NCBI GenBank assembly: GCA_963662545.2
Contig: CAXXLL010000003.1
Coordinates: 1,920,001 to 1,984,000, forward strand
Direction: 5' to 3'
DNA: 64,000 nt
Origin: Gammaproteobacteria bacterium
Lineage (GTDB): Bacteria > Pseudomonadota > Gammaproteobacteria > Ga0077536
In this document: one piece after another, positions 8,260-57,962 of the stretch
Position numbering within the stretch: the first letter of the stretch is position 1
How the letters are laid out: every line of letters begins with the position of its first letter
Notes under the pieces: generated by a model
The model's input: the letters and a program-made list of their open reading frames with translations, nothing else
What the model was told of the DNA's origin: nothing
The model's database searches: none
Position numbers and translations under genes: made by a program

Positions 8260-8345
8260 TCCTGGCCATTAAGCGTTAAAAGCAAAAACCGACGCTTAGA
8301 TTCCCGAGCGCAAAAACCGACGCTTAGATTCCCGAGCGCAACCGC

Positions 8346-8455
8346 ACCTAACAAATGGATCAACCTGACGTGTTACAGCAGGCTCCTTTGAGGCGGCTCC
8401 GCATTTTCGCCCCAAAGAAGCCTGCTGTAACACGCAGGTTATCCTAGCGTTAGGT
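8346..8455 (+). repeat. attC
   Basis: Family consensus. Confidence 0.95.
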
Positions 8456-34390: not shown

Positions 34391-34512
34391 GAATAGGTCC
34401 TCTTGTTGGGATCCGGTACAGTCAGCTTAAATCAGTCTATAGAATCAGGTCCAAATTCGATTAGAAAGCGTCGAGTAAACTAGATACGGCTCCAATTGGA
34501 GATTAATTAAAT

Positions 34513-36117: not shown

Positions 36118-36187
36118 GAAATTGAGAAGAAGGGACCTGATCTGTGGGGTCCAGTCTGAATCTGAACGATTCTGAACCCTATGTGCC

Positions 36188-38176: not shown

Positions 38177-38333
38177 GTCGGTTCTCCTGTCTTCTCTCGA
38201 GGGTCCTTGGCGGCCCGAAAAATGCGTACGTTGGGCTGTGCCCGACGTACGTGTCAATGGTGTGTCGAGCGGCCCCGACGATTCCGCATGCCGGGCAACG
38301 TTGGGGTGGACCGCGGGGCGTGCATGCGGTACA

Positions 38334-38420
38334 CGCGTTGGTGGACACGCGTGATCCGCTTACCCATGAACGCTTGAATCAAATGAATTTGGGGGCTTCG
38401 TGCTGATGGGTGTCCCGAAT
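38334..38420. repeat. 87-bp imperfect direct repeat, copy A
   Basis: Ungapped match to 40573-40659, about three-quarters identical by eye. Confidence 0.75.
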
Positions 38421-38429
38421 TTCACCAGG

Positions 38430-40301
38430 TCAGCGCTTCCTTTCACGTTTCTTGCGTCCGCCAGGACCACGCGGCGCGGTGTTGCGATCCGCGTACGACG
38501 CAACGTCTACGAGTTGCTCCAGCGGCCCTGCGAGCCGCGGGTCGTTGTGGCTGCGCACGACGATCTCTTTGGCGAACAGCATGGCGACGTAGCGCAGCTT
38601 CAGCGCCGGTCGCTCGGCGACTTCACCCCAGTCGCGATGACCGGAATTGACTTGCCAGTGGCCGTCGACCATGCGCGAGCGCCAGTTAGCGCCCGGTTCA
38701 TGCACGAATTTCGGCGTCGGGATGCCGCCGCTGCTGCGCGCGGGCTTGATCACTTCGACGATCTCGACCACGCGTTTCGCCCGGGCAACGTGCTCATCTT
38801 GCGACGCGATTATGCTCAGATTACCGATCGCAACGTTAGCGCCCGCTTCAATCGTCGCCGCTGAGCCCGTCGCCGCGACATCGACGAGCAGCCCGACATC
38901 GGGGTCGAGCTCCCATTCGAAGTGCACGCCCTTGCGGATCGCCCGCCCTGAAAGATCCACCGGGCGCGCGTGCACGCGTCTCGAACCGAGACGTTCGACC
39001 CGGATCGGAGTCGGCGTAATGGCTACCGCATAAAGAGGCCCTGGTTCCGGGGATTTTTGGACGGGCACGTCGTCCGCGGGCTCGCCCGGCAATCCGGAGA
39101 CGGCGATGGTTTCGCCAGTGCCGCCCCAATCATCGGCGCGATCCGAAACGTCGGAGCCTTTTTCGTGCAGCGGCATCATGGAAAATTCCGGTCGCGCGCT
39201 GAAAAAGTCGCGGAACGCGCGCTTCAAATCGCGTAGGAGCGTGCGGTCGACCCGAGCAGCGCGTTGCTCCTCCCGCTCGGCCAGGATCCGCTCGAGGACG
39301 AGTGCGGCCTTCGCCAGGCCCTCGGCAAATCCGGCGGCAGCAGCGTCGGGCACGACACGACGCCGTGTGCCCGGGCTGACCTGAAAGCCCGCAAAGTCAA
39401 CCAGGCCGCAAAGCCTTGGATCCGTCCACGGTTGGCGGTCGAGGTCCAGGTTCGCGAGTTCGTGGAAGTTCTCGGCCACGAGTGTGCCGGCCGCATACAC
39501 GGACAGCGCCTGCTCGCCGTCTTCGTCCGCACTGAAATAGATCTCGAGCTGGATGGACGGGTATCCGGGGACCTCGATCGGACCCAGACCTTGGATGCGT
39601 TCGCCGAGAAAATTCGGCGGGCGGACCGGGATGAGCTTTTGCGAGCGCCCCCTAGCCATGCGATCCTCGATCACCAGTTCCACTTCACGCGCGAGTAGCT
39701 GCCCGCGCAACTCGGCGGCTAGATACTCCGCAACCCGTCTGCCGCCGAGGATGGATACGACCTCCGGATGGACGTTGGTAATGAGCACTTCCGTCCACCG
39801 TTCTTCGAGCGGCAAGCGGCCGCCGGCGAAATCAATCTCGAATTCGGGACTGTCGCGCCGCAACGATAAGGTCATCGGTTTCTGTCCCGTCACGGCGCTG
39901 CGGATCTGCATTTCCTCACCGATACTCCAGAATCCGAGCAGTCCGATGCCATACTGACCCTGGGTCATCAATTGCATGCGCTGCTCGGGCGTGAGGTCGC
40001 GCTTGCGGCTGTGGCCGATGTGGGTGGCGATATAGCGCAATGCCTCGGTGCGCTCGAGCTCGGGAATCACGCCGTCTCCGTCGTCGATGATGCGAATGCT
40101 CGGATTGCCGCGTAGCCGCGCGCGGTTGACGCGGATCTGGCGCGCGCCGGCATCCAGGCTGTTCTGTACTAGTTCGGCCAGCGCCTTACGCGGATCAGGC
40201 TGGCTCATCGCGATCCAGCGGATCAGCTCGAACGGATCGTGCGCCCGCACCTTGCCACGGAACGCAGGTTTTCTGACAGTCCGTTTTGCCCTTGTAGTCA
40301 C
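38430..40301 (-). CDS. GHKL (HATPase_c/MORC-like) ATPase with an uncharacterised C-terminus
   Basis: ELVQNSLDA, DDGDG, GHSRK, GQYGIG. Confidence 0.85.
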   Translation of the reverse strand: MTTRAKRTVRKPAFRGKVRAHDPFELIRWIAMSQPDPRKALAELVQNSLDAGARQIRVNRARLRGNPSIRIIDDGDGVIPELERTEALRYIATHIGHSRKRDLTPEQRMQLMTQGQYGIGLLGFWSIGEEMQIRSAVTGQKPMTLSLRRDSPEFEIDFAGGRLPLEERWTEVLITNVHPEVVSILGGRRVAEYLAAELRGQLLAREVELVIEDRMARGRSQKLIPVRPPNFLGERIQGLGPIEVPGYPSIQLEIYFSADEDGEQALSVYAAGTLVAENFHELANLDLDRQPWTDPRLCGLVDFAGFQVSPGTRRRVVPDAAAAGFAEGLAKAALVLERILAEREEQRAARVDRTLLRDLKRAFRDFFSARPEFSMMPLHEKGSDVSDRADDWGGTGETIAVSGLPGEPADDVPVQKSPEPGPLYAVAITPTPIRVERLGSRRVHARPVDLSGRAIRKGVHFEWELDPDVGLLVDVAATGSAATIEAGANVAIGNLSIIASQDEHVARAKRVVEIVEVIKPARSSGGIPTPKFVHEPGANWRSRMVDGHWQVNSGHRDWGEVAERPALKLRYVAMLFAKEIVVRSHNDPRLAGPLEQLVDVASYADRNTAPRGPGGRKKRERKR

Positions 40302-40572
40302 GCAAACAGTATACGGTGGGTATTAAGACGGCATTAAACGGAGCGGCATTGAAGGACACCCAAGGTCCGCTTCCCTATAAATGTTTGAATCGAATGGATT
40401 TACAGGCGTCGGGTTTATGTCCCGAGATACGCACCGCATCGTGCTTAAGCGGTTCTTCGGCGTCGCTAGCCCAATCCTGCGAAGCCAAGCCCTAGCAGTG
40501 CGAGCGGAGTTGGCTCCGGATTGCCGGTATTGATCGAGAAGTTATACGTGTATTGCCGCGCGTTCGGCGCAC

Positions 40573-40659
40573 CGCGTTAGAGGACGTCCATGATCTGCTT
40601 GCCGATAAATGCTTGAATCAAACAAATTTTGGGGTTTCGGAGTAATGGGTACCCCAAAT
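40573..40659. repeat. 87-bp imperfect direct repeat, copy B
   Basis: Shares GCTTGAATCAAA..AATTT.GGGG.TTCG with copy A. Confidence 0.75.
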
Positions 40660-40833
40660 ACGCTCCGAAAAACGCGTAGCCTGGGGTCCGCCCGCCACGC
40701 GTGTAAACGGTGCAGAATAATGGGGACAGTTTACCTATTTCGCATATTCACCCTCTGAGATCGCCGCATTCTTAAGTGCAAATAAGTAAACTATCGCCAT
40801 TAATGTCACATTATTGTCAGACCAAGCTCGAAC

Positions 40834-42072
40834 ATGAAACAAGACACCCAGATCCGCATCCTGAAACAGCTGCTCAACTACGTTGAGACGAAGGCCAACC
40901 ACGACGCGGGCTGCCAGGTCCTGAACCCGGTATCGACGTACACCTCGTCCGAACTCGCAGGTCGCGAGTGGCAGGTCTTTTTCCGCGAGCACCCGCAGAT
41001 CGTGGGATTCTCAGGCGACCTTCGCGAGCCCGGCAGCTATTTCGCCCTCAATGATTTCGGCGTGCCGGTACTCGCAATGCGCGGCTCTGACGGGACTTTT
41101 CGCGCATTCGTCAACGCCTGCCGGCATCGCGGTTCGCAGCTCGCCGCTCCGGGGCGTGGGACCACGCGGCGCTTCGTGTGCCCCTTTCACGGCTGGACCT
41201 ACACGACGAACGGTGAACTCGCCGGCGTAAGCGAAGCGGACCAGTTCGGCCCTGTTGACCGAGACTGTATGGGCTTGGTCGAGCTGCCGGCGGTTGAGCG
41301 ATACGGTTTCCTCTGGGTGCACCCGCAGCGGAACGGGCGCATTGACATCCCTGAACTCCTTGGCGGACTCGCCGAAGAGTTCGAAAGCTGGAATGTCGGT
41401 CGCCATGTATTCAGCGGCGAGTGCCGGCTCGACAAGCGCATGAATTGGAAGCTTGCGAACGACACCTTTGGCGAAACCTACCATTTCAACCGGCTACACC
41501 GCGATACACTGGGCCGGCTCTCGCACGGCGATGTGATCGTCTACGAAACCTTTGGTCGTAATCACCGTGCGGTGTTTCCGTCGAAGTCGATCGAGAACCT
41601 GCATAACAAAGCCGAAGAGCGATGGCGCATCGGCGGTGCGGCGACGGTGCTTTATTACGTGTTCCCCAACATCGAGATCACGATCTCCGACCGGCAGGTG
41701 ACGCTGTTTCGAATCTACCCGGACGGCGAAAATCCGGGCCGTTCCGTGACGCATATGAGCCATTACTTCAGCGAGGACGCGTTGGACCTCATCGCCGCTG
41801 GGGAGAAGACGGTCATCGATGAGCGTAACGTCTACGACTCAGCCGCGCGCGACGGCAATGCGATCATATCGCCGCAGGCGGCGATGGAGATCCTGAATAC
41901 CACGGTCGAGCACGAGGACTTTCGCATGGGCGAGGCCGCGCAGCGTACGGCCGAGAGTGGACTCCTCGAGCATTTCATCTTTGGACGCAATGAGGCGCCG
42001 CTACACCATTTCCACGACACTTTCCGCGCCGCCCTCGACATGCCGCCCCTCGAACGCCTCAACGTGGCCTAA
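40834..42072 (+). CDS. Rieske oxygenase alpha subunit
   Basis: CRHRG...CPFHGW; E.YH....H. Confidence 0.9.
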   Translation: MKQDTQIRILKQLLNYVETKANHDAGCQVLNPVSTYTSSELAGREWQVFFREHPQIVGFSGDLREPGSYFALNDFGVPVLAMRGSDGTFRAFVNACRHRGSQLAAPGRGTTRRFVCPFHGWTYTTNGELAGVSEADQFGPVDRDCMGLVELPAVERYGFLWVHPQRNGRIDIPELLGGLAEEFESWNVGRHVFSGECRLDKRMNWKLANDTFGETYHFNRLHRDTLGRLSHGDVIVYETFGRNHRAVFPSKSIENLHNKAEERWRIGGAATVLYYVFPNIEITISDRQVTLFRIYPDGENPGRSVTHMSHYFSEDALDLIAAGEKTVIDERNVYDSAARDGNAIISPQAAMEILNTTVEHEDFRMGEAAQRTAESGLLEHFIFGRNEAPLHHFHDTFRAALDMPPLERLNVA

Positions 42073-42154
42073 GACTGAACACTGTGTGAGGGCCGAAGCG
42101 TTCTGACGATGAGTCGCGCCGTGATAGGCATCCGCGCATTAGGGGGACACCTAA

Positions 42155-42315
42155 CAGGTTGTTGAAAAACGATGTCCCTGTCGTTTTTCAACTCGCAAGA
42201 CGAAAACGCGGTTTCCGTCTTGCTCCATCAATCAAGCACATAGCGTGCTCGATTGATGCCGGCACATCCCTGTGCCGGGCACAGGCTGTCGAAAAACGAG
42301 TTTTTCAACAACCTG
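42155..42315. mobile_element. MITE (IS5/IS1182-like ends)
   Basis: 16-bp TIR CAGGTTGTTGAAAAAC; CTAA duplication. Confidence 0.75.
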
Positions 42316-42351
42316 CTAATTATTCGCTTACGCAGAATCCTTCGCCGTTAT

Positions 42352-42771
42352 TTAATCGGGGTCAACCGGAATGTCGAGCGTCAGCATGTTGTTGAAATAG
42401 GTCCCTTCGTCCGTCACAAAGGCACCCCATTGCCCTACCCGGTCTTTCCAGATGAACCAGCCGCAGTAAGGTGGCGCGGTTTTGGCATAAGTATCCCAAG
42501 TGATCTCCACAGCGCCGAGTTCGATGGTTCGCCCGTCGTCCGCGAAAATCTTGATGTCGATGGTTTCTCGACCGGCGTGGGGCCAACCGTCCACGATGGT
42601 CGTACAAACTCCGTCGACAGCTACTTCGACCCGGCCCGTGAATTCACCACTGCAGGATCCCGTGAGATCCATATGAAAACTATTGTCGGCGTTTAGACCC
42701 CCGGGGTTTGGACCGACTTCCGCCGCCCCACCCCACACCAAGTGAACCAAGGCCGATCTTTTCTTCGCCAT
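42352..42771 (-). CDS. Hypothetical protein
   Basis: ORF with an RBS-like GAAGGA upstream; family not recognised. Confidence 0.5.
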   Translation of the reverse strand: MAKKRSALVHLVWGGAAEVGPNPGGLNADNSFHMDLTGSCSGEFTGRVEVAVDGVCTTIVDGWPHAGRETIDIKIFADDGRTIELGAVEITWDTYAKTAPPYCGWFIWKDRVGQWGAFVTDEGTYFNNMLTLDIPVDPD

Positions 42772-42820
42772 GTCCTTCTCCCTTACGTTTGCCCCCTGAA
42801 TTCGAGGTGCTGTGACCTAA

Positions 42821-42982
42821 GGAACCTCTGAATAAGTCATGGCACATCTGCCTTGCCCATGAAATCGCGCAGCTCGGCGTTACGAATCTTGCCAATAGTC
42901 CCCGCTATGGACTGCGATTCGTGCCTTGATCTGCACAATTTCATGAACAATTCAGACGCACCATGACTTATTCAGAGGTTCC
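42821..42982. mobile_element. MITE (IS5-like ends)
   Basis: Perfect 22-bp TIR GGAACCTCTGAATAAGTCATGG; flanks CTAA/ATAA. Confidence 0.75.
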
Positions 42983-42992
42983 ATAAAGCGCG

Positions 42993-43388
42993 CTACCCGA
43001 ACACGGCCGTAACGAGTTCCGTGTCGAGGTATTCCCGCATTTCCCGAATCTTGCCGTCCTTCACCGTCAGGATGATGCAGTAAGTATTGTTGTAGTCCTT
43101 GCCCGCAGTACTCTTAGAAGTGCCCTGCATCTCGGCGACGACCTTGTCCCCTTCGGCGATGAGTTGCTTGATCTCGAGTTGAATCAGTCCAGTCAGCTCG
43201 TTCCCAAGCGGCTCCAGCAATTTTTTCCTGATGTCGTCCTTGCCCTTCAGTGTCCCTGCAAAACGGCGAGAGCCGATGAAATACCACTCGACGTCGTCCG
43301 CCATGTGGTTCATGAACCCTTCCGCGTCGCCGGCGCTAATGGCGGCGTAGAGTCCACGCACGACTTGTTTGTTCGCTTCTGTACTCAT
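42993..43388 (-). CDS. SnoaL/NTF2-like protein
   Basis: NKQVV...ADDVEW..AEGDKVV..Y.N.Y..REYLDT. Confidence 0.85.
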   Translation of the reverse strand: MSTEANKQVVRGLYAAISAGDAEGFMNHMADDVEWYFIGSRRFAGTLKGKDDIRKKLLEPLGNELTGLIQLEIKQLIAEGDKVVAEMQGTSKSTAGKDYNNTYCIILTVKDGKIREMREYLDTELVTAVFG

Positions 43389-43580
43389 TGGCTAATCCTC
43401 CGGTTGGGAATCGCGGGATCCGCAGTTTAACCGGAGTGGCACTTCGCGAAACACCCATTTCGTGCGCCCGTTTAGTCGAAAGGAAAAACGATGGTGATCA
43501 CGCCCATAGATAGTGGAATGAGAAAGTGGGAACGAAGCAGGGTTGATCGGTTTTATATAGGGCGCCGTACCGCCAACACC

Positions 43581-44675
43581 TTAATGCATCAGCTGGTGCG
43601 CGATGAGCTCCGTGGCGACGATAGCGAGTCCGGTAAAAGCTAGAAAGACGCCCGTTCGATTGCGCCGGCGTTCAAATTTTGTCGGTTCCGTGATGAGGCC
43701 CGACGGCTCCGCGTGCCGCGCAAAAGGGTGCTGCCAGGGCACGATGTAAAGGATGGCGATGGCCCCAAGCGTCGCGACCGTGAGCAGGGGTATCCGCAAG
43801 ATGGATTGATCCAGAAACATCCCGATTGCACCCATCCCGATCGAACCCAGTCCCAGCGCAATACCCGCCGCGTTGAGCGCGATGAAGCCCGCGCATGGCG
43901 CGCTCAGCACGGCTGCCAACGTTGTGGCGATGCGCAGTTTTTGCGTGCTGCCTTCCCCGCTCTCGGCGTCGTCTTCCTGCCATGCCCCTTCGAGGCGCGC
44001 GACCGTCACCGGCTCGACAAATCCCTTGAGCGTGATGGTCTCGACGTCCGCATCGGGAAATTGCTCGGCAACCGCCGCGTAAATATCGTTGTCGACGAGC
44101 ATTCCTCGGGGCGAGACGCGTGACACCAGCCGCGCCGCGCGATTGACGACATCGCCGATGGCGGAGTAGTGCGCGATCTCTTCCGAACCCACGCGGCCAA
44201 CGCGCGCATGGCCCGCCGCAATACCGACTGTTACATCCATGGGTTGGCCCAGTTCGGCGCCGAGTTTGTCTACCGCCTGCTGGAGTTCCAGCCCCGCCCT
44301 GACTGCCAGTGCGGCGAAGTTATCGCGCCGCAGCGGGACGTTGAAAAAAGCCATCACTTCATCACCGACAAACTGGGTAACAAAGCCGTCCCATTTGACG
44401 ATCACGTCCTTGGCGGTGCGCAAATACGCGTCGAGCACTTCGTGCATGCGGTCCGGTCCAAGCGTCTGGGTGAGGTTCGTGTAGCCGGTAAGATCGGCGA
44501 AAAAGACGCCCAGCTCTACGATTCGGCCCTCTTCCACGTGGCCGTTACAGCGGTTACACAGGTTTGGATTCCCGTGGCTGCGACGGACGCCGCCCATTCG
44601 CGAGAACAGGCCAAGCACCCCCGCAAGCGCGGTATTGCACACCAGGCAAGTGGAACTCAGGTCCATGTCGTTCAT
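43581..44675 (-). CDS. Class III adenylate/guanylate cyclase with Cys-rich N-terminus and C-terminal TMs
   Basis: FFADLTGYT, QFVGDEVMA, IGDVVNRAARL. Confidence 0.85.
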   Translation of the reverse strand: MNDMDLSSTCLVCNTALAGVLGLFSRMGGVRRSHGNPNLCNRCNGHVEEGRIVELGVFFADLTGYTNLTQTLGPDRMHEVLDAYLRTAKDVIVKWDGFVTQFVGDEVMAFFNVPLRRDNFAALAVRAGLELQQAVDKLGAELGQPMDVTVGIAAGHARVGRVGSEEIAHYSAIGDVVNRAARLVSRVSPRGMLVDNDIYAAVAEQFPDADVETITLKGFVEPVTVARLEGAWQEDDAESGEGSTQKLRIATTLAAVLSAPCAGFIALNAAGIALGLGSIGMGAIGMFLDQSILRIPLLTVATLGAIAILYIVPWQHPFARHAEPSGLITEPTKFERRRNRTGVFLAFTGLAIVATELIAHQLMH

Positions 44676-44955
44676 CGCGATTCGCTCTGTGTTCCGCCTC
44701 GCGTTTCGGTCCGGGCCTGAACGTCGGGAACTGCTTCACAAGAATCTGGCAGTCCTAATGCTTGTAGGCCCTCGTGCTGTGTTCGACGGATAAGTTGTGC
44801 AATAGTTCGATAATCGCTAGCTACGGGGACGTCCGGCGCCGCTGGCGATATATCGATTGCAACTTAAATTAAAAAATGAAGAATTGAATTGTAGTGCGTT
44901 TGAAGCGGTGCATATTTGCGCTTGTATAAAGTGAAGACTTGACCCCTTAAATTTC

Positions 44956-46299
44956 ATGATCGCGCTCCTCAAGCTATTCGCATTGGCATTTGTACTTTCG
45001 GGACTGCATTGGCACGATGAGGCCGGCCGCTGGGTTCGACGATTCTATTGGACTGCCGGTTTCGCGGCAGCGGCACTCGGTCTCGCCTATCTCGCGGCGC
45101 TGATCGCCGTGCGGACACAAACGGATTCGGAATGGGATTTCCTCAACTATTGGCTCGTGGGACGCATCGCGGCCGAGGGGCTGCCGCTCTACGAGGCCGC
45201 GTCGTATCTTCGGCAGAGTCTTCCATTTTTGCCGAGCGATGAATTCTTTGCGGAGGTGATGCTCATCGGCACGCTTTACACGCCGCCAGCGGTCCTGCTG
45301 TTCCTGCCCTTGGGGTATTTCGAGTACCGCGAGGCGTACGTCCTATGGTCCATCATTCAGGCTGTCGTGCTGGTACTCGCCGCAGTGCTGATGAAGCGCG
45401 AATTTTTTAGCGCCGGTTCGGGTCGACAGCACGTCTCCGCGTGGCTCGTCGTGGTCTGCCTCGTCGCCTTTTATCCCCCCGTTAGGTGGACGTTTTATAA
45501 CGCGCAGGTCAATTTCATCATGGCACTGCTGTTCATGTTGGTCTGGCGCTCGCGCTTCAACGCTCTGGCGGGTGTCTGGATTGGCGTCGGTATGTGTATC
45601 AAACCGTATTTCGGAATCCTGGTCTTGTGGCTCCTGCTGCGGCGCCGAATTGGCACCGTGGTGCTGGTAGTACTCACGGTCGCGCTGGCCTTCGCAAGCG
45701 CTGCACTCGTCTTCGGAGCCAGCGATGTGGCGACTTATTTTCTGGACAATCCGATTGCCAAGGCACCCGCTCATTTGTACACCCAAGACGTTAACCAGTC
45801 GGCGCTGGCCGTCCTGCGGCGCGCCACCGGTGCAGAACAATGGCCCGGATCTCCACTCATGCACGGCCCTTACATCGCGTTCGCATTTCTTCTCACCTCG
45901 ATGACCGCATGGTCTGTCCTGCGCTGCGACGACGACCGCTGGTCCCTTATTGCCTGCGTTTCTCTGGGTTTGCTGCTGGCGCCGCAGTCGCTGCATCATT
46001 ACAGTGCCGTGTTGTTGCCGGCGGTGACGTTCTTTGCGTTTTACAGGGGATTCAAATGGCTCGGTATGATTGCCATCGTTTCGTTGTTCGCCGTGGGCTC
46101 TAACGAGGGCGCTGCCTTCTGGCTCAATCTCTGCGTTTGGATGATTGCAGCGTCCTATCCGTGGTGGGGAAAGGCGTTCGCAGACGCGCAAGCAGTGACA
46201 CAAATAACATCGGTAGCAGAGCTTGGCACCCAGCCCACAAGTAAAACAGTGTCAAAAAGTGGGCCTGGCGCAACCGATCCAGTCAAGGATCAGGTATAA
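44956..46299 (+). CDS. GT-C fold glycosyltransferase (GT87/DUF2029-like)
   Basis: DF..YW, YTPP..LLF.P, AQVN, IKP, NQS, HHY; multiple TM segments. Confidence 0.85.
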   Translation: MIALLKLFALAFVLSGLHWHDEAGRWVRRFYWTAGFAAAALGLAYLAALIAVRTQTDSEWDFLNYWLVGRIAAEGLPLYEAASYLRQSLPFLPSDEFFAEVMLIGTLYTPPAVLLFLPLGYFEYREAYVLWSIIQAVVLVLAAVLMKREFFSAGSGRQHVSAWLVVVCLVAFYPPVRWTFYNAQVNFIMALLFMLVWRSRFNALAGVWIGVGMCIKPYFGILVLWLLLRRRIGTVVLVVLTVALAFASAALVFGASDVATYFLDNPIAKAPAHLYTQDVNQSALAVLRRATGAEQWPGSPLMHGPYIAFAFLLTSMTAWSVLRCDDDRWSLIACVSLGLLLAPQSLHHYSAVLLPAVTFFAFYRGFKWLGMIAIVSLFAVGSNEGAAFWLNLCVWMIAASYPWWGKAFADAQAVTQITSVAELGTQPTSKTVSKSGPGATDPVKDQV

Positions 46300-46340
46300 A
46301 GCACCGCTATCGGCATCGCCTTCAGAGCCCATGCACTACC

Positions 46341-47525
46341 ATGAAAATCAATGATCGAATCGGCGCCGCGGCGCTCGCGCAACTAAAGGCCAAGGCTGCA
46401 AAACAGCGGGACGCGGCGTTGGCCGCGCTTGAAGGTAAACGAATCCTCGCGATCGGCTGTGGAGGTTTCGTGGGTAGTCACTTATTGGACGCGCTCCTGG
46501 GGCGGGCCGGAATAGAGGTGGAGGGCTGGGATCCCGACGCGAGTAAAATCGAGCTTCACAAAGGCCGGCCAAACTTCAACTTTGTAGGCCACGGAACCGA
46601 CGCTGCGGCGTCGCTGGTATCACTGGACGAGGCAGTGAAGCACGCCGACATTGTCGTAAATCTGGCGGCGTTGTGTAATCCCTCCGAAAACAACACGCGC
46701 CCGCTGACCACCATCCACGCCAATTTCATCGACTGCCTGCCCATCGTCGATGCTTGCGCACGGCATGGGCGCTGGCTGATACATTTCTCAACGAGTGAAG
46801 TCTACGGGCGGACGCTTGCCAGCTACATGGCAGACAATCGCTATGCGGAAATCGATCTGTACGAACAGCGTGAGGCGACGACTCCACTGGTGATGGGTCC
46901 TGTTACGAATCAGCGCTGGACCTACGCCTCGTCGAAACAGTTACTCGAACGACTGATTTACGCACACCATGAGGAATCGGGAATGCCTTTTACGGTCATT
47001 CGCCCGTTTAATTTTTTCGGCCCGAAAATGGACTACATTCCGGGGCGGGACGGTGAAGGCGTGCCGCGCGTGCTCGCGTGTTTCATGGCCGCCTTGCTCG
47101 ACGGTGCCCCGATGCAACTGGTCGACGGCGGGCATGCGCAGCGCACCATCGTGTCGATCGACGACGCCATGCGCGCCATCCTGCAGATCCTCGCGGGACC
47201 CGATCGCTCGCAGAATCAGTTCTTCAATATCGGCAACCCCGGTAACGAGTTGACCATGCGTGAGCTGGCCGAATTGATGCGCACATCCTATGCCGAGCTC
47301 ACCGGATTAACGGCCGCGTTCGACCACCCCATCGTCGACATCTCAGCACGTGATTTCTACGGTGCAGGCTACGAGGATTGTGACCGTCGTATGCCGGATA
47401 TCGAAAATGCACGCCGATTGCTCGAGTGGGAGCCGCTCGACGATGCCAGAACCACGCTTATAGCGGCAATGTCGTACTACGTTGACCGATTCGCCGAGAA
47501 CAACGCACGGGCGAAGGCGCGCTGA
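46341..47525 (+). CDS. UDP-apiose/UDP-xylose synthase-like SDR
   Basis: NLAALCNP..NTRPL..I..NFID.LP; RPFN..GP.MD.IPG.DG.GVPRVLACF; FYG.GY.D.D.R.PD. Confidence 0.8.
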   Translation: MKINDRIGAAALAQLKAKAAKQRDAALAALEGKRILAIGCGGFVGSHLLDALLGRAGIEVEGWDPDASKIELHKGRPNFNFVGHGTDAAASLVSLDEAVKHADIVVNLAALCNPSENNTRPLTTIHANFIDCLPIVDACARHGRWLIHFSTSEVYGRTLASYMADNRYAEIDLYEQREATTPLVMGPVTNQRWTYASSKQLLERLIYAHHEESGMPFTVIRPFNFFGPKMDYIPGRDGEGVPRVLACFMAALLDGAPMQLVDGGHAQRTIVSIDDAMRAILQILAGPDRSQNQFFNIGNPGNELTMRELAELMRTSYAELTGLTAAFDHPIVDISARDFYGAGYEDCDRRMPDIENARRLLEWEPLDDARTTLIAAMSYYVDRFAENNARAKAR

Positions 47526-47675
47526 CGCGAGGTTGCTCGCACCACCTACGCCAGTTACGCCGTACGTCGTTATTGCGCTGCTCGATGTGCCTGGGCGCTG
47601 ATTTCGATCCAGCTCGCCGCGCGATCGCGCAGCAGTGCTTAAGCCGCCGCTGAGCGGACTTCGAGGATCAATTCA

Positions 47676-48398
47676 ATGCCTGTCAGGTTCGGCATCTACA
47701 TCCCGGCGTTCAACGCGGCGCATACGCTCCCAGGCGTCATCGAGCGGATTCCCGCGTCCGCTTGGGCGTTGTGTGATGACGTGGTTATCGTCGATGACGG
47801 CAGCGCCGATCGGACCGCGGCGGTTATCGACGAACTTGCCAGTTGCCACCCCGCCATCCGCCGGATCAGCCTCAGCCATAATCAGGGTTACGGTGCCGCT
47901 GTACGCACAGGCCTGACCGCGCTCACCGATTCACCCGCGGACTATTTCGCCTGCCTGCATGCGGACGGCCAGTACCCACCTGAGATGCTCGAAACGTTCG
48001 TGCGCCATGCGGCGAGGGAGCAACTCGATATTCTGCAAGGTTCGCGACATCTGGACGGTACCGCGCGCGAAGGCGGCATGCCACTGTATAAACTGCTTGC
48101 AGGTCGCGCGCTGTGCGCGATCGAAAACGCGGCTTTCGGCTTGACGCTGACCGATTATCATTCGGGTTATCTCGTATTGAGCCGGCGGGTCATCGAGCGC
48201 GTCGACATCGATCAGTTGAGCGGCTATTTTGATTTCGATTTGGAACTCATCGCGGCGGCCAGACAGCGTGGACTTCGTATCGGAGAATTGGGGATCCCAA
48301 CGCACTATGGCAGCGAAGTGTCTTACCTCAATCCCGCGATCTACGGTGCACGGGTTCTCGTGATCGTGGGCAAGTACCTGCTTGGTGCGTATCGATGA
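47676..48398 (+). CDS. GT2 polyprenol-phosphate glycosyltransferase (DPM1/ArnC-like)
   Basis: IPAFN, VDDGS.D, NQGYG, HADGQY, GSR, TDYHSG. Confidence 0.85.
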   Translation: MPVRFGIYIPAFNAAHTLPGVIERIPASAWALCDDVVIVDDGSADRTAAVIDELASCHPAIRRISLSHNQGYGAAVRTGLTALTDSPADYFACLHADGQYPPEMLETFVRHAAREQLDILQGSRHLDGTAREGGMPLYKLLAGRALCAIENAAFGLTLTDYHSGYLVLSRRVIERVDIDQLSGYFDFDLELIAAARQRGLRIGELGIPTHYGSEVSYLNPAIYGARVLVIVGKYLLGAYR

Positions 48399-48510
48399 AC
48401 CAGCATCGTCGATAACTCGTCCCCGGCCCGAAATCGGATACCTGCGACTTAAGGACCACCGCAGCCTTTATCGTGCCCCTTTGGAACGATCACGGAAAGG
48501 CACACTTCGA

Positions 48511-51085
48511 TCATCCGTGTGATTCTGCGAACGCATCGTAAAAACGGTTGAAAGCATTGACCGTGCCGCAAACGTAGAGGGCATCCGTCTCGGCGAAAAC
48601 GAACGATGGCGGGATGTCCATAATGACCTCTCCGCCGCGTTCGACCGCGACGACCGTGCACCCGGTGCGTTCGCGAATTCTGGATTCCAGCGGGTGATGG
48701 CCGGCCAGCCGACCGGCACCGAGCTTGACGAGCTTGATGCGGGCCTGCTGCGAGACCATCTCACCCAGGACGTGATGGGCGAGGAGCTGGCCGGCTACCT
48801 GACTCACCGAGAGCGCGAAGTCGGCGCCCGCCTTCTGAATGCGCCCCACATTGTCTGCCAGGGCGGCACAGGCGATGATGGGCACATCGGGGGCGTAATC
48901 GCGAACCACCGTTGAGGCAAGCAGCGTCGCGCTGTCGCTTGCGCACGCGAGAATGACGACGCGAGCCGTGGCCACTCCGGCCCTCTCCAGAACGCCCGCG
49001 TCCAGGACGTCTCCGAGAACCTCGACGCCAGGCTGGTCGGTATCGTCGATGACGCACACTATCTTCACCGGCGTCTTTTAACATCTCGACCAGTTTGCTC
49101 CCGACATCTCCGAAGCCTGCCACCACGATCCTGCCTGCGTGTGTGATCGGGCGGGCAATCTCGCTGAGACGTTTGATGCTGTCGGGACTGCCGGCGGCCA
49201 CCAGAATCATCCCGGGCCGTAGAAGCTGATCACCCGCTGGCGGCGAATCGAGCGCGTCATCGACCCATTGGCCGACAATGTGCGCTCCGGTGTCGGCATG
49301 GATCCCCGATTCCGCGAGGGTCTTGTTGGCGAGCGGGCTGTCGTCGTGGACGCGGATCTCGGCGACCTCGAGCAGGTGCTTGAGCGGCTCCACACCTGTG
49401 ATCCTTGGCCCGATCTTGGCGCTGGCGCGCACGGCAACAGCGACTGCCAGTACGTGATTTGGAGTGAACGCCGCCGTTGCGCCGGCGAGTTGCATCGGCC
49501 CGCGGCGATTGGGATTGTCAACCAGCGCGACGATGGGACCGCTAAACCCAAGCTCTCGCGCACTTACCGCGAGCAAGGCATTGTGTTCGTCCTCGCCATT
49601 GGCCACCAGCGCTCGCGCTTTTGTCAGCGGCCGCAGATCGAGATCCTGCTCGGCAAACGAGGCATGCACGACCCGTACACCCCGGGCGTGCAAGCGTCGC
49701 GCCACGGTCTCGTCCTCTTCGATCACGATCATCGGCAATCCTCGGCTGTCGAGCTCTCTAATCAGGGAATCGACCTCGGGACCGTATCCGTAGATCACCA
49801 CCGCGTCGTCAACTTCGGGCAGTGTATGCAGGAGTTGCCCCTCGTAGCGTTCTTCCACGAGCGGGGAGCTGAAGGTTTCGATCTGGACGATGCCGCGGGT
49901 TGCATCTGCCTGCGGGGCCGCCTTGCCTTCGAGCAATACGGCGCAGCCTTTCAAAGCCATCGGTGTAAACAGATTCAGGAGGAAGGCTGTGAAGATCAGT
50001 GTCGTGAAAATGGCCTGGTCGATAGCGCCCTGAGCCAGCGCCAGCGCCAGCGAAGCCAGGATGAATGCAATTTCGGCGCGCCCGCACATGCCGACGCCAA
50101 CGGTGAGCGCCTCACGGGATGGTAGACCCATGCGCAAAGCCATACCGCCGGCGCTCAAAATCTGGCCGACGATCACCGCGATCGTCAGAAGCGCGATGAA
50201 TGCCGCGCCCGAAGCACTGATGTCGAAGCTGATAGAGAATCCCAGTGAAATGAAGAAAATCGGCCCGAGAAATGAATAAGCGATGCCATAAGCCCGGTCT
50301 TTGACGACCCTGACCAGGTTCGGGTGCGCGACCTTTTCTTCGAAGAAGAGGCCTGCCAGATAGGCACCGAGAATCATGTGCAACCCGATGGCTTCGGCGA
50401 ACAGTCCCAAGGCTATTGCCATGAGCAGCACGAAGGTAAAGCCTTTTCCGCCCTTGGAGCGGAACGGCAGAGTCAGCCGCGGATAGACGAATGTCCCCAG
50501 CAAGACCGCCACCGCGAGGAAGCCCACGACCTTGCCCAAAGTGACGACGATGCTGAGAGGCTCGAATGTGCCGCCCGACAGCACCCCGATCACGAGGCCG
50601 AAGAAGATCAAGGTCAGCAGGTCGTCGATGACGCAACTCGCGACGATCACGCGCGCCACCCGGGTGTTGGCTAGTTTGAGATCCGTGAGGCTCTTGAGCG
50701 TAATCACTACGGCAGTGGCCGTCATGGTCAGCCCGACAAAGGTCGCGCCGATGACGTCTAGGCCGAAGAATAAGGCGACTCCGAAGCTGACCGCGAACGG
50801 CACCGCGGCGCCGACGACCGCGACGCCCATCGAGCGCTTCAACGCGTCGTAGAACTCGAGCGGTTGGGTTTCGATGCCGGCGTGAAACATCAGGAAGAAA
50901 ATGCCGATCTCGGCCAACAGCTGGATCGACTCACCGGGTGCGATCAGTCCCAGCACAGCTGGACCCAGAAGTACGCCAACGATCAGCTCACCCATTACCG
51001 TCGGCAGGCCGAGCGGCCGCAAGGTGACGGCGACCAGCCAAATGCCCGCTAGGAGGAGCAGCAGATCGAAAGCGATTTCATGCAT
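48511..51085 (-). pseudogene. CPA2 cation:proton antiporter with TrkA-N/C domains; 1-bp frameshift near 49060
   Basis: VIDDL and GRAE motifs; GED|VCVIDD continues in another frame (possible sequencing error). Confidence 0.8.
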
Positions 51086-51319
51086 GGTAAAGCGGGAGCG
51101 GAGATCTCAGGAGAGAGACTTCGATCTGAGCAAAAAGAAAGTCCAGACACGATCGTCCGGGAAGTACAAAGCTTACGGATCGGTCAAGTTCGAACGCCGG
51201 GTAACTTAGCTGGGCTCGGCTCGGTAAGCTTGCAGCCTGGTAAGCCGAGGTCGGTGACAATCGGGAATCATTGCTCTCGCCATCTCTCACTGACCCCAAT
51301 GAGGGGGGACAGTGCAGGT

Positions 51320-52966
51320 TTAATCCAGCCTGAAGCCCTCATATCCCTTTGCAGCAACTTCGTCACACTTCTGCCGGTAGGCCGGCGAACCGCCCGCGTA
51401 CATCAGAAAGGCGCGCTTCTTCCCCGGTACGTTGGCGCCCATGAACCAGGAGTCGGTTTCCGGAATGAGCGTGGCGGCGACCACTTCATTAACGTGCTCA
51501 GTCCAGGCATCCTCCGCACCGGTCGAGGCTGCGATACGCTCTAGCTTGTTTTCTTTCATATACCGGATGCAGTCGGTAACCCATTCGACGTTCTGCTCGA
51601 TGCACCGTGGCACGTTGCAGAAGGTAGCTCCATTGTGCGGGCCGACGACCGTAAATAGGTTCGGGAACCCGGCGCTCTGCATCCCGAGGTAGGTGCGCGG
51701 ACCATCGGCCCATTTGTCCTTGAGGGCTTGACCGCCCTGGCCACGAATGTCGATGCGAGTCAGGGCCCCAGTGATGGCATCGAAACCCGTCGCGTAGACG
51801 ATGACGTCAAATTCGTAATCTGCATCCCGCGTCTTGATGCCCTTCGCAGTGATCCGCTCGATCGGCGATTCCCGAACGTCGACCAGCAAGACATTGTCCC
51901 GGTTGTACGCCTCGTAGTAGCCACTCTCCAGTGGCACACGCTTGGTGCCGAACGCATGATCGGTGGGCACCAACTTTTCCGCGACGGCGGGATCCTTGAT
52001 GCGCTCGCGGATTTTGGCGCGGGCGAACTCCGAAACCAATTCATTGGCTTGCTTGCTCGTCAGGATGTCGTGGAAGTTGCCTAGCCAGTATCCGAAACCG
52101 GGTTGCGACCAAAGCTCTTCGAGTATCGCGTGGCGTTCGTCGGCGGGCACTTCGAGGGCGGAGCGCTCGTCGAAACCATGGAGGAAGGCGCCGAAGGTCT
52201 CGCGACACTTTTTGAAGATTTCGGGATAGCTCGCCTTGATCCTGGCTTGAGTCTCGGGGTCGATCGGGCTATTACGCAAGGGCACACAGTAATTCGGCGT
52301 ACGCTGGAATACGGTGAGATGTCCCACGTTTTTGGCGACTTCGGTAATCAACTGGACGGCGGTGGCGCCCGTTCCGATCACACCTACGCGCTTGTTAATG
52401 AAATCAACGGGATCATGCGGCCAAAGCGAGGTGTGCCACGACTCACCCTCGAAACTGTCAATACCTTTGAAATCGGGTATGTAGGGCGCAGAAAGGACTC
52501 CGACCGCCGTGATCAGGAATCGTGCCCGCGCACGGCCGCCTTGTTTGGTCTCGATCTCCCAGCCATTCCGAGCTTCGTCATAGTGGGCCGCGATGACGCG
52601 GGTATTGAACTGGATATCCCGGCGCAGATCGAACTTGTCGGCCACGTATTCGAGGTAGCGCAGGGTCTCGGGCTGCGCTGCAAAGTGCTCACTCCATTCC
52701 CATTCCTTCAGTAGTTCTTCCGAGAAAGAATACCCGTAGCTGTAACTCTCCGAATCGAAGCGTGCACCCGGATAGCGGTTCCAATACCAGGTGCCGCCCA
52801 CCCCGTCGGCCGTCTCGTAGACGCGCACGGACAATCCGAGCTCGCGTAGACGGTAAAGCTGATAAAGACCAGAAATACCCGCGCCCAGAATGATGGCGTC
52901 AAATTGATCGACACTCGCTGGAACGGCTATCGGCAAATCCTGCTGTGAAGCGGACACAATTTTCAT
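51320..52966 (-). CDS. Baeyer-Villiger monooxygenase
   Basis: GGTWYWNRYPG, FEGESWHTSLWP, GTGATAVQ. Confidence 0.95.
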   Translation of the reverse strand: MKIVSASQQDLPIAVPASVDQFDAIILGAGISGLYQLYRLRELGLSVRVYETADGVGGTWYWNRYPGARFDSESYSYGYSFSEELLKEWEWSEHFAAQPETLRYLEYVADKFDLRRDIQFNTRVIAAHYDEARNGWEIETKQGGRARARFLITAVGVLSAPYIPDFKGIDSFEGESWHTSLWPHDPVDFINKRVGVIGTGATAVQLITEVAKNVGHLTVFQRTPNYCVPLRNSPIDPETQARIKASYPEIFKKCRETFGAFLHGFDERSALEVPADERHAILEELWSQPGFGYWLGNFHDILTSKQANELVSEFARAKIRERIKDPAVAEKLVPTDHAFGTKRVPLESGYYEAYNRDNVLLVDVRESPIERITAKGIKTRDADYEFDVIVYATGFDAITGALTRIDIRGQGGQALKDKWADGPRTYLGMQSAGFPNLFTVVGPHNGATFCNVPRCIEQNVEWVTDCIRYMKENKLERIAASTGAEDAWTEHVNEVVAATLIPETDSWFMGANVPGKKRAFLMYAGGSPAYRQKCDEVAAKGYEGFRLD

Positions 52967-54636: not shown

Positions 54637-56355
54637 CTAGTAGCGGACGAAGAGGCTTCCGTGAAAATCAACCGTATCGGAGCGGGTTCGTTCTTCCGCG
54701 ATCAGGACGCCGTTGCCCTCGACGACATAGGCCGCATCGAAGCTGACCCCCAAATTATTCCCCCAGGACCAGCGCAAGCCCAGGCCGATACTCGCCAGTG
54801 ACTCGCTTCTCACACCGGTTTTATCACCGGATCCGACGTTGAGGACGCCTCCGTCGACAAAGCCGAGGAGTTGCACCTTGTATTTTAGAGGCGGCGCGTA
54901 GACTTCTACCGTCGCCTGCATGCCCTTATCGCCGGTGACTTCACGTTCCTCGAAGCCCCGCAAAGAATACGCGCCGCCGAGACCGAATTGTTCGCCCGAG
55001 ATCAGGAGATCCGGCGAGTATTGCGCGCTGAAACGGCCTCTCAAGGTCCATCCGCGCGGCAGCGGATGGTCTACATTGGCGCCGAAGCGCAGCGCAAACC
55101 AGCCTTCGTCTGCGCCGAAACGGTTGGCGGCATAGGCGAGGTCTGTATTTGCACCGCCGGATCCCAGGTTCGTCGTATACCGCGCGTAGAAACCGCGGCG
55201 CTTGAGCCCGGATTCGATGCGGCCTGCGTATTCGATGGTGAGCGGGCGGCTGCGAACGTCGACGCCGATCGGGATCGGGTCGAAAAGAGGATCGCCGACA
55301 AAAAGCGTTTTGTTCTCAAACAACCGATCGTCTATCGCGAGTGAGATCGTGTGGCTGTAGTTCCCCCGCGGCTGAAGTATGTGCTTGTAACTGACACCGG
55401 TGAATTTACCTGCGCCGCTGACATCGAAGGCATCCGCGACCCGTCCGCTGTCGACGTCCGACTGCGTATAGTACGCTGAGAGCTCGCCGCCGAACTGATA
55501 GATCGGTAATCGATAAAACGCTCCGTACTGTTTCACGCCGCCGGTGTTCTCGGGCGAGGTCGTGTAACTCAAGGTCAGCGCGTGGTCGCGGTTGAACAGG
55601 TTACTGTGCTGCAGGCCAAGCGAAACGCGTGATACCCCGGTTCGTTCATCACCGCTGTTGCTGATCGATCCGAAGAAAACCAGCGGGCGTGAATCCCGTA
55701 CCCGGACCTGGGCCGCGAGCCGGCCGCCACCTTCGCCCTCGCGGATGAACACCGCCACGCGACGCGCGGGGTGCAGGTTGGACAATTGCAGCGACCGCGC
55801 GATCGCGAGGCTGTTCGGCGCAGCGCCCTGATTGAGCGCGGGCAGGCTCCGCAGGATATTGGCTTCGTCGAAATGCTCGTTGCCCTCGATCGTGATCTCC
55901 TCGATACCAAAGGTGATGATCTCGAGCTTGAACACGCCCGCCACCGCGCGCTGCGGGGGCACGATCACGCGGTGGAAATAGCTGCCGCGTGCTTTGATCG
56001 CGTTCTCGAGCGCCTCGGCCGCGTCTTCCACACCGGACAGGCCATCCTGCGGTCCGGTATAGGGCCGCAGGATGTACTCGACTTCGGTGTCCGACAGCGG
56101 ATTGTCGCCGACGACCTCGAAGCGCTCGATCGTGAACAACGGCGCGCCCGCGGCCGTCCCGCACAGCGGCATGGCGCAAAGCACTACGGCGATCAGGTTT
56201 CTCGACAGCTTGTGTATTGCCCTTCCCCCCCCAAGCAGCCGCGCGTGCGGCAACTCTTTCGCAGCGGAGGACGTACGTCGTTTTCCGCTGCGAAAGCACG
56301 GCACGGCGTGCGCGCTGCCGCATGGCAACCGTCGCCGTTCTTGCTCCGTGGGCAA
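54637..56355 (-). CDS. TpsB (ShlB/FhaC/HecB) outer-membrane transporter
   Basis: POTRA domain, GGAYSLRGF; true start likely ~56220-56170. Confidence 0.9.
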   Translation of the reverse strand: MPTEQERRRLPCGSAHAVPCFRSGKRRTSSAAKELPHARLLGGGRAIHKLSRNLIAVVLCAMPLCGTAAGAPLFTIERFEVVGDNPLSDTEVEYILRPYTGPQDGLSGVEDAAEALENAIKARGSYFHRVIVPPQRAVAGVFKLEIITFGIEEITIEGNEHFDEANILRSLPALNQGAAPNSLAIARSLQLSNLHPARRVAVFIREGEGGGRLAAQVRVRDSRPLVFFGSISNSGDERTGVSRVSLGLQHSNLFNRDHALTLSYTTSPENTGGVKQYGAFYRLPIYQFGGELSAYYTQSDVDSGRVADAFDVSGAGKFTGVSYKHILQPRGNYSHTISLAIDDRLFENKTLFVGDPLFDPIPIGVDVRSRPLTIEYAGRIESGLKRRGFYARYTTNLGSGGANTDLAYAANRFGADEGWFALRFGANVDHPLPRGWTLRGRFSAQYSPDLLISGEQFGLGGAYSLRGFEEREVTGDKGMQATVEVYAPPLKYKVQLLGFVDGGVLNVGSGDKTGVRSESLASIGLGLRWSWGNNLGVSFDAAYVVEGNGVLIAEERTRSDTVDFHGSLFVRY

Positions 56356-56474
56356 AAGCTCGCGATTGGTTGTGTTTATGACGCGAGCGGTTTCTTTCCG
56401 TCGTTAGGTGTCTTTAAAGCGTTCCCGAGTCACGCGGCGCGCTTTGGGTTCGTCAGCGCATCTGGGGAGCTGTG

Positions 56475-57884: not shown

Positions 57885-57962
57885 CGCGTATTGCAGGATT
57901 TTTCATCATGAACCAGTGTCAGGTAATCCATGTAACTGCCTAAATATATGTATTTTTACGCC

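Follow-up and report, generated by a model that had tools for sequence, protein, structure and literature searches.

A three-gene cassette at positions 44956-48398 of a stretch of gammaproteobacterial DNA (lineage Ga0077536; assembly GCA_963662545.2, contig CAXXLL010000003.1, positions 1,920,001 to 1,984,000 of the forward strand) is probably a self-contained, horizontally mobile unit for the lipid-carrier-mediated pentosylation of an extracytoplasmic target. The whole stretch analysed, 64,000 nucleotides long, is called the window below. The three open reading frames (ORFs) of the cassette lie on the same (+) strand and encode a predicted GT-C glycosyltransferase of family GT87 (P0001, 447 aa), a short-chain dehydrogenase/reductase (SDR) of the UDP-apiose synthase (UAS) type (P0002, 394 aa) and a short glycosyltransferase of family GT2 (P0003, 240 aa), with gaps of 41 nt between the first two and 150 nt between the last two. 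The flanking genes, which encode an adenylate/guanylate cyclase (43581-44675) and a Na+/H+ exchanger-TrkA protein (48761-51085), are unrelated and lie on the opposite strand, which sets the cassette apart as a unit of its own.

The pathway can be drawn in four steps. UDP-glucuronate, supplied by a TuaD-like UDP-glucose 6-dehydrogenase encoded elsewhere in the genome (556 bits; subfamily model, 465 against 189.8), would be converted by P0002 to UDP-apiose, with UDP-xylose as co-product, a reaction predicted from strong homology. The small peripheral GT2 would then take the pentose off UDP and, on the inner side of the membrane, attach it to polyprenyl (undecaprenyl) phosphate, much as dolichyl-P-mannose synthase (DPMS), ArnC, GtrB and PpgS do with their own sugars; family resemblance and gene context suggest this step. 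The lipid-linked sugar would next be flipped across the membrane, presumably by a protein whose gene was not found, and P0001 would transfer it to an extracytoplasmic glycan, lipid or protein, as its family and fold suggest, with Asp61 as the likely catalytic base. If both transferases invert like their characterised relatives, the product would be an alpha-linked apiofuranoside. A tyrosine-to-asparagine change in this strain's synthase, discussed below, could alter flux or the product ratio.

The synthase and its substituted tyrosine

The central gene, P0002 (46341..47525, +), had been likened to plant UDP-apiose/xylose synthase (UAXS) in a sequence-only reading of the window, on the strength of several motifs. 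All of these motifs occur in the translation (AALCNP, NTRPL, NFIDCLP, MDYIPGRDGEGVPRVLACF, FYGAGYED and STSEVY), and they coincide with conserved blocks in an alignment to Arabidopsis UAXS1 (PDB 6h0n), where the plant protein has STCEVY in place of STSEVY. UAXS1 is also the best match of P0002 among all PDB sequences (330 bits, E 1.7e-97), compared with ~200 bits for ArnA and ~78 bits for human UDP-xylose synthase (UXS) in the same search. Matches of this kind are not fortuitous. Identity is 58.1% to GrUAS (P0093), 58.6% to Xanthomonas pisi UAS (XpUAS, L027) and 32.3% to the C-terminal domain of E. coli ArnA, and P0002 scores below the NCBIfam cut-offs of both U4kpxs (251 vs 294) and ArnA (233 vs 777). 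GrUAS, XpUAS and CeUAS are reported to convert UDP-glucuronate into UDP-apiose together with UDP-xylose (PMC5607165).

Phylogenetic placement points the same way. Fifty-seven related loci were taken from reference genomes, including X. pisi DSM 18956 and several Geminicoccus genomes, and the G. roseus enzyme GrUAS itself was recovered as P0093. A FastTree phylogeny was calculated for 121 sequences from a 127-sequence alignment; five duplicates had been removed earlier, and six poorly aligned rows (rep_P0177, rep_P0268, rep_P0259, rep_P0217, rep_P0188 and L066) were excluded from the tree. The tree is without plant sequences, and the plant comparison rests on the 6h0n alignment and search scores. 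A subclade with support of 1.0 unites P0002 with seven close homologues and nests in a 39-leaf clade that includes GrUAS and XpUAS (SH-like support 0.855), while ArnA lies elsewhere; a deeper superclade of sequences with the cysteine equivalent to plant Cys100 is weakly supported (0.659). The SDR thus groups with the assayed bacterial enzymes GrUAS and XpUAS and not with ArnA or UXS, the comparison by which its assignment had been expected to stand or fall.

P0136, a candidate for a plant UAS outgroup, was not plant-like (266 bits to 6h0n). The SDRs of the sister clade L047-L053, which are 39-44% identical to P0002, come mostly from Rhodobacteraceae-type genomes and lie at ~6001-7000 in most of their loci, were rejected as UASs: Val/Phe stand in place of Cys100/Tyr105, which is neither UAS-like nor ArnA-like, and a P0003-type neighbour is missing.

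The active-site residues listed for UAXS are Lys189, Tyr185, Thr139, Glu141, Tyr105, Cys100 and Cys140 (PMC12820599, Table 3). Cys100 has been tied to ring opening and is Ala in UXS and ArnA, and Cys140 of the plant enzyme is Ser in UXS and ArnA (PMC12820599). Read in the order 100/105/139/140/141/185/189, the residues are C-Y-T-S-E-Y-K in GrUAS and XpUAS, A-Y-T-S-E-Y-K in E. coli ArnA and C-N-T-S-E-Y-K in P0002. The Cys100 equivalent of P0002 is Cys112, within AALCNP; T151, E153, Y195 and K199 (the equivalents of Thr139, Glu141, Tyr185 and Lys189) are kept, as is the GxxGxxG nucleotide fold (GCGGFVG). Ser152 occupies the plant Cys140 position, and since GrUAS and XpUAS, which are active, also have Ser there, STSEVY is the normal bacterial state and Cys140 is not defining for the bacterial enzymes. 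Strong homology thus argues that P0002 belongs to the bacterial UAS family, with a predicted activity of converting UDP-glucuronate to UDP-apiose.

The identification as a UAS therefore stands, but the sequence-only reading overlooked the asparagine at the position of plant Tyr105 (Asn117; codon AAC, 46689..46691, +). Tyr105 is among the aligned signature active-site residues common to UAXS, UXS and ArnA (PMC12820599). It is Tyr in 80 of 82 aligned Cys100-type sequences, the exceptions being P0002 and the poorly aligned rep_P0217 (Ala), and it is kept even in homologues that are 74-80% identical and in the orthologue from the same-genus genome G001. Judged by this residue the window allele falls outside the group, though the gene family fits. 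When contigs of four public sequencing runs (X2, X6, X8 and X14) were compared over the cassette, base 46689 proved to be T (TAC, Tyr) at full depth in X6, X8 and X14, which come from three other studies; run X2 shares the A of the window, whose assembly it may have supplied. X6 and the window differ at two of 3,551 bases, 46689 and 48263, both of which change an amino acid, and the second of these is R196/S196 in the GT2, at a variable position. By these comparisons Asn117 arose recently, is private to the strain and alters a conserved position of the active site.

The substitution raises the alternative that the cassette is impaired or decaying in this strain, with the change inactivating or redirecting the synthase and leaving the pathway silent here even if sibling strains use it. 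The near-absence of other residues than Tyr at this site, the Tyr read in three near-identical strains, the place of this change among just two differences from X6 and the signature status of Tyr105 all lend this view some weight. Set against them, all three reading frames are intact, the only other difference from X6 falls at a variable position, and the A shared by run X2 is perhaps a real, maintained allele, but this last point loses force if X2 is the source of the assembly. On balance an impaired cassette seems unlikely.

The two glycosyltransferases

P0001 (44956..46299, +) matches the Pfam GT87 family PF09594 with an E-value of 4e-27 and 95.9 bits (cut-off 25), over profile positions 2-237 of 237; a sequence search of the PDB returned nothing even at E <= 1. 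An AlphaFold model made from 11 sequences (pLDDT 69, pTM 0.72) has mycobacterial PimE (9dm7_A) as its Foldseek rank 1 (E 1e-4, TM 0.53/0.62). In VIA the model aligns with PimE at Z 19.5 and an rmsd of 4.7 A over 344/383 residues (model 31-404, chain 27-403); the next matches, PIG-U, ALG3, PIG-M-type and ALG6 proteins, lie at Z 13-16, after which the scores drop. The GT87 GT-C that had been recognised beside the SDR is thus upheld by both the family match and the predicted PimE-like fold.

Residue conservation is in keeping with such a relationship. Among 11 P0001 homologues, down to 26% identity and including the distant one from Binatia, there is no variation at D61, F62 and N64 and very little at Y65, K216 and H348. 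In PimE, D58, Y62 and K195 are essential and H321/H322 contribute (PMC12041525). The catalytic D58 lies at the tip of PimE's first juxtamembrane helix. The D61-x3-Y65, K216 and H348 of P0001 are suggestive of an echo of PimE D58/Y62, K195 and H321/H322, in pattern and spacing only. P0001 reaches 45.7 bits against the NCBIfam mycobacterial mannosyltransferase model, for which the cut-off is 413. PimE, the characterised GT87 enzyme, uses polyprenyl-P-mannose (PMC12041525). P0001 is best described as a GT87 GT-C with a PimE-like modelled fold, predicted to act outside the cytoplasm with a polyprenyl-phosphate-sugar donor.

P0003 (47676..48398, +) matches Pfam Glycos_transf_2 at E 1.8e-23, which identifies only the general family. 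The best of its 15 NCBIfam matches is the polyprenyl-phospho-GalNAc synthase PpgS (79.1 bits vs a cut-off of 370); AglJ, a dolichyl-P-hexose transferase and ArnC (42.8 bits, cut-off 529) are also among the 15, the others being ordinary GT2s. Among solved structures, its four best-scoring relatives are the P. furiosus DPMS 5mlz (59 bits) and three ArnC sequences, with the GtrB-type sll0501 ranking below them. The metal and donor motifs of P0003, VDDGS and HADGQ, are conserved and align with vDDdS and mDADlQ of DPMS, and the first Asp of the DxD motif is replaced by His (HADGQ) throughout the P0003 subfamily. Some polyprenyl- and dolichyl-phosphate GT2s, such as human DPM1 and PpgS, have no membrane anchor. 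By these resemblances P0003 is related to the lipid-phosphate glycosyltransferases but is no orthologue of any characterised one. The designation of P0003 as a polyprenol-phosphate GT2 therefore survives as to type, DPMS, ArnC and PpgS being closest, and does not extend to any named orthologue, since no such cut-off is reached. Because P0003 is below every NCBIfam cut-off and carries no membrane helix, its acceptor is one that we infer: family resemblance and gene context predict a polyprenyl-phosphate pentosyltransferase.

Recurrence of the module and the identity of the sugar

A close UAS is found in two of 41 related genomes, the window genome (G000) and G001, and in G000 only in a class-wide sample of 300 genomes. 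The order of the three genes is kept in G001 (64, 79 and 80% identity), where the UAS and GT2 orthologues are ~40 nt apart, compared with the 150-nt spacer of the window (47526..47675). None of the eight queried genes that flank the cassette in the window matched at the G001 cassette, which is bordered there by a response regulator with a histidine kinase and by class IV aminotransferases. The cassette is thus intact in different surroundings, and the unit therefore moves as a cassette.

More distant genomes provide further cases. Directly downstream of the UAS, a P0003-type GT2 (53-56% identity) was found in three of 49 reference-genome loci with a UAS of at least 50% identity. In L030 (Binatia) the order is UAS, GT2 and then a GT87 protein (PF09594, E 2.9e-9). 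L005 (Vicinamibacterales) has a UDP-glucose dehydrogenase, a 134-aa protein, a 473-aa protein with ten predicted helices, the UAS and the GT2, and L044 (Acidobacteria) has the same core. A GT-C therefore adjoins the UAS and P0003-type GT2 in all five whole-genome contexts, as a GT87 protein in the window, G001 and L030 and as an ArnT-like protein in L005 and L044. A related arrangement occurs in L024, with a dehydrogenase, an ArnT-like protein and the UAS, and with transposases at the place expected for the GT2. Searches by tblastn with P0001 (E <= 1e-5 and 1e-4) found no GT-C in any other locus; the GT-Cs at other loci were detected by Pfam, hydropathy and fold. Equal lengths of the longest contig (4233, 12859, 34610, 812545 and 5915696) hint that P0001 homologues may share contigs with close homologues of the UAS. 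The three genes do co-occur elsewhere, in G001 with different flanks and in L030 as UAS-GT2-GT87, so that the link drawn between them from the window is borne out, and the combination of UAS, DPMS-type GT2 and GT-C is a recurrent module. Other bacterial UAS genes have other company: GT90 genes in four Xanthomonadales-type loci (L008, L023, L027 and L031), GT4-type genes in cyanobacterial loci and a small number of others, and elsewhere various glycosyltransferases or none. In earlier work on bacterial UASs, the authors noticed no conserved operon around the genes (PMC5607165).

The ArnT-like proteins define a second family beside the UAS and GT2. They are ten-helix proteins of ~470 aa (L005:4427-5848, +; L044:4456-5865, +; L079:2987-4402, -; L024:3974-5797, +) with ~180 homologues, almost all of them unannotated and with only a weak PMT match in Pfam. 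A model (pLDDT 87.5) has a GT-C fold and aligns in VIA with ArnT (5f15) at Z 21.1 and an rmsd of 3.8 A over 301 residues; ranks 1-46 are all GT-C enzymes, after which Z falls to 6.9, and the Foldseek E-values are weak (>= 0.03). On this modelling the ten-helix proteins are a candidate for a new GT-C family with a pentose donor. The small proteins encoded upstream of the GT-C in the Acidobacteria (L005:4026-4430 and L044:4028-4459) were considered as flippases and left unassigned, having no family match and a single hydrophobic segment.

The association between SDR and GT2 was also approached from the side of the GT2, with eighty metagenome loci encoding relatives of P0003. Among the 26 closest (tblastn, at least 190 bits), 18 stand next to a P0002-like SDR (40-58% identity), or 15 if the near-identical L082/L083 and L089-L091 are each counted once. 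The remaining eight include two contigs of less than 1.4 kb (L093 and L096), one locus with 706 nt upstream only (L072) and five that have room for an adjacent SDR and are still without one (L073, L074, L086, L088 and L097). Only one of the 54 more distant relatives (L101) has such an SDR. The Cys100 equivalent is present in 9 of 11 distinct full-length GT2-adjacent SDRs, with Ala in L095 and L101. The UAS-linked GT2s share HADGQY and (T/S)D(Y/F)HSG, and the more distant GT2s have HPDYQY or HGDGQY and SE-HxG. The SDR-GT2 pair is thus the conserved core, and the third partner varies.

These contexts bear on the possibility that P0003 is an ordinary Leloir transferase that places apiose or xylose directly onto an acceptor at the cytoplasmic face, such as a lipid-linked oligosaccharide or glycolipid, with the GT87 protein acting on the same polymer with another donor, such as polyprenyl-P-mannose, so that no polyprenyl-P-pentose would be made. 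A GT2 that has no membrane helix and is below the cut-off of all polyprenyl-P transferase models would suit such a scheme, as would the lack of a GtrA-family flippase match in the genome, the several P0003-family loci without a recognisable GT-C and the use of polyprenyl-P-mannose by PimE (PMC12041525). However, the four closest solved relatives of P0003 (DPMS and the three ArnC sequences) are all polyprenyl- or dolichyl-phosphate glycosyltransferases, PpgS is its closest curated model, and the cassette's three genes include none for a mannose donor. Furthermore, two unrelated GT-C families, GT87-like and ArnT-like, fill the slot beside the same UAS-GT2 pair in different phyla, and their recruitment there fits a shared lipid-linked donor better than coincidence. 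Direct transfer from the UDP-sugar by P0003 accordingly appears quite improbable.

Several observations nonetheless weigh against lipid-carrier-mediated pentosylation and are best considered together. With respect to the proteins, Asn117 may weaken, cripple or otherwise change this strain's synthase, confidence in the P0001 model is middling, all 15 NCBIfam matches of P0003 are far below their cut-offs, and a hydropathy scan of P0003 showed no membrane helix or hydrophobic segment. The GT2 that lies next to the UAS in X. pisi is a Leloir enzyme that uses UDP-xylose directly (PMC6193724). No flippase gene is found within the cassette, and the GtrA family (PF04138) has no match in the genome, which is 96.85% complete, compared with matches in 8 of 14 control genomes; the search for flippases covered this family and no other. 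With respect to gene context, only the three reference loci of the 49 have the P0003-type GT2, and among 21 mapped loci of the P0003 family, 18 of them examined with Pfam and many on short contigs, a recognisable GT-C was found only in L079 (ArnT-like) and L088 (PF10131); polytopic proteins in L072, L080 and L095 are unassigned. Other genes stand beside the SDR-GT2 pair in some of these loci: UbiA-family prenyltransferases (L077:1360-2313, +; L080:11419-12450, +), a second SDR with an AMP-ligase and an MBOAT protein (L083:5826-10887), and AlgX-like SGNH and MBOAT proteins (L087:158-2929 and 6713-8755; L091:933-2729 and 6687-8780). This variability of the third partner counts against a universal GT-C step, and the donor from the SDR-GT2 pair may feed other, possibly acylated, products. 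The route from UDP-glucuronate through UDP-apiose and a lipid-linked apiose to an extracytoplasmic acceptor, as sketched in the sequence-only reading, is strengthened in its gene identities, in the clade of its synthase and in the co-occurrence of its genes, and is left incomplete by the missing flippase gene.

A further alternative keeps this architecture and changes the sugar: the GT2 would make polyprenyl-P-xylose, the GT-C would xylosylate, and apiose would be a by-product or be used elsewhere. Every UAS that has been assayed yields UDP-apiose as well as UDP-xylose (PMC5607165), the GT2 beside the UAS of X. pisi consumed UDP-xylose and not UDP-apiose (PMC6193724), and the sequence of P0003 gives no indication of donor specificity. 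Against this, a canonical UXS (408 bits to human UXS1) is encoded separately in the genome, and UDP-xylose is therefore available without the cassette. The P0003 subfamily is moreover tied to Cys100-type SDRs, with the two Ala100 cases noted above, and the X. pisi xylosyltransferase XpXylT belongs to a different GT2 subfamily, pfam13704 (PMC6193724), with P0003 finding no match in the X. pisi locus by tblastn at E <= 1e-5. Xylose as the sugar that the cassette was built to deliver is a rather unlikely but serious contender. Given the separate UXS and the tie of the GT2 subfamily to Cys100-type SDRs, there is a modest lean toward apiose over xylose, on circumstantial grounds.

Known systems, genomic setting and wider meaning

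The apiose operon of X. pisi (XpUAS, the GT90 enzyme XpApiT and the GT2 enzyme XpXylT) resembles the cassette in combining a UAS of the same clade (58.6% identity) with two glycosyltransferases (Smith & Bar-Peled 2017 and 2018; PMC5607165, PMC6193724). It is flanked by insertion sequence (IS) elements, and with the window cassette present in 2 of 41 related genomes, both look horizontally acquired. The X. pisi transferases are soluble Leloir enzymes that take UDP-apiose (GT90) and UDP-xylose (GT2, pfam13704 type) directly (PMC6193724). Unlike that operon, the window cassette has no GT90, and its GT2 is of the DPMS/ArnC/PpgS type and its GT-C is an integral membrane protein; tblastn with P0001 likewise gave no match to the X. 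pisi locus at E <= 1e-5.

The ArnA/ArnC/ArnT pathway of lipid A aminoarabinose, a different sugar, offers a parallel in logic, in which a UDP-glucuronate-decarboxylating SDR is followed by a GT2 that loads undecaprenyl phosphate and a GT-C that acts outside the cytoplasm. Relatedness in sequence can be recognised (P0002-ArnA, 203 bits and 32% identity; P0003-ArnC, 52 bits and 29% identity). Unlike Arn, the cassette is without an ArnB aminotransferase, an ArnA formyltransferase domain, an ArnD deformylase and an ArnE/F flippase, its SDR has Cys100 and falls in the UAS clade, and its GT-C is PimE-like, with P0001 matching ArnT only at E 0.77. No ArnA above cut-off was found in the window genome.

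Kelly et al. (2024) described systems of a polyprenyl-phosphoribose synthase (PPPRS), a MATE flippase and a GT136 GT-C, which share with the proposed pathway the delivery of an undecaprenyl-P-pentofuranose to an extracytoplasmic GT-C (PMC11127046). The combination of such a donor with a GT-C gives alpha linkages that are hard to reach by Leloir routes (PMC11127046). In those systems PRPP is the starting point, used by a UbiA-type polyprenyl-phosphoribose synthase, and the sugar is epimerised on the lipid (Ribf, Xylf, Araf) and flipped by MATE, whereas the window cassette would start from a UDP-sugar, has a GtrB/DPMS-type GT2 and a GT87-like GT-C, and has no UbiA or MATE gene. Apiose is not among their sugars, the word having 0 occurrences in the paper (PMC11127046). 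Pairs of a GT2 polyprenyl-P-sugar synthase and a GT-C are also seen in mycobacterial Ppm1/PimE, in PpgS/Rv3779 and in the Gtr (GtrA/GtrB/Gtr*) systems of O-antigen glucosylation, and the last two are known to work as pairs. These differ from the cassette in their sugars, which are mannose, GalNAc and glucose; the cassette is far below the orthologue cut-offs (GT87, 45.7 vs 413; PpgS, 79 vs 370), and the genome has no GtrA match.

Within the window, the GC content of the cassette (0.58-0.59) is the same as that of its surroundings, and a scan for promoters and terminators gave nothing above shuffled expectation. The genes around it (33926-52966) are rich in oxygenases and of accessory metabolism, and include an F420H2-dependent quinone reductase, an FAD aromatic hydroxylase, a Rieske ring-hydroxylating oxygenase, SnoaL-like proteins and a flavin monooxygenase. 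Positions 1-33702 are dense in insertion sequences (IS3, IS30/IS481-like, ISL3 and a split Mutator transposase at 32455-33702) and toxin-antitoxin genes, with ParE, Fic/DOC and a PIN-like gene in the same region. Two 448-aa DDE_Tnp_1 ORFs there (18738-20084 and 27936-29282) have identical Pfam matches. GC is ~0.50 over roughly the first 28 kb, compared with 0.55-0.68 downstream. At the other end, on the minus strand (54637-63979), two very large ORFs of 1035 and 977 aa without any Pfam match have a FecR-like protein and a ShlB/POTRA outer-membrane protein as neighbours, an arrangement that resembles a two-partner-secretion-type locus and implies an outer membrane. Near-identical copies of the cassette (window 44900-48450) occur in sequencing runs from eight studies, with run X14 covering it at an identity of at least 99%. 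Some of these runs are labelled "sponge metagenome", a weak hint at habitat.

Apiose has long been regarded as a plant sugar. In bacteria, to our knowledge, assays cover no more than three synthases, and a single apiosyltransferase, a soluble one, has been identified. Searches of the literature for apiose together with polyprenyl, undecaprenyl, dolichyl or lipid-linked carriers or with GT-C enzymes returned only general reviews. In agreement with the earlier impression that the route had not been described, no lipid-linked apiose was found in the literature searched, which did not extend to subscription journals and supplements.

The broader proposal is a tentative one, with somewhat less than an even chance of being correct: polyprenyl-phosphate-apiofuranose would be a natural glycosyl donor, made from UDP-apiose by a dedicated GT2 subfamily (HADGQY...TDYHSG) and used by at least two unrelated GT-C families. 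If so, it would add a new sugar to the few polyprenyl-phosphate-linked donors. The PimE-like GT87 proteins of the window and Binatia and the ArnT-like family of the Acidobacteria, with its ~180 members, would be the first extracytoplasmic apiosyltransferases; more cautiously, they would be candidates, as two families, for apiosyl (or xylosyl) transfer in the periplasm, and ~180 unannotated membrane proteins would gain a likely function. UDP-apiose is unstable, and the pathway would supply the sugar in lipid-linked form for glycoengineering. For the organisms themselves, the pathway would place alpha-linked apiose on envelope glycans across several phyla, including uncultured symbionts, and alpha-apiosides would be predicted on bacterial surfaces.

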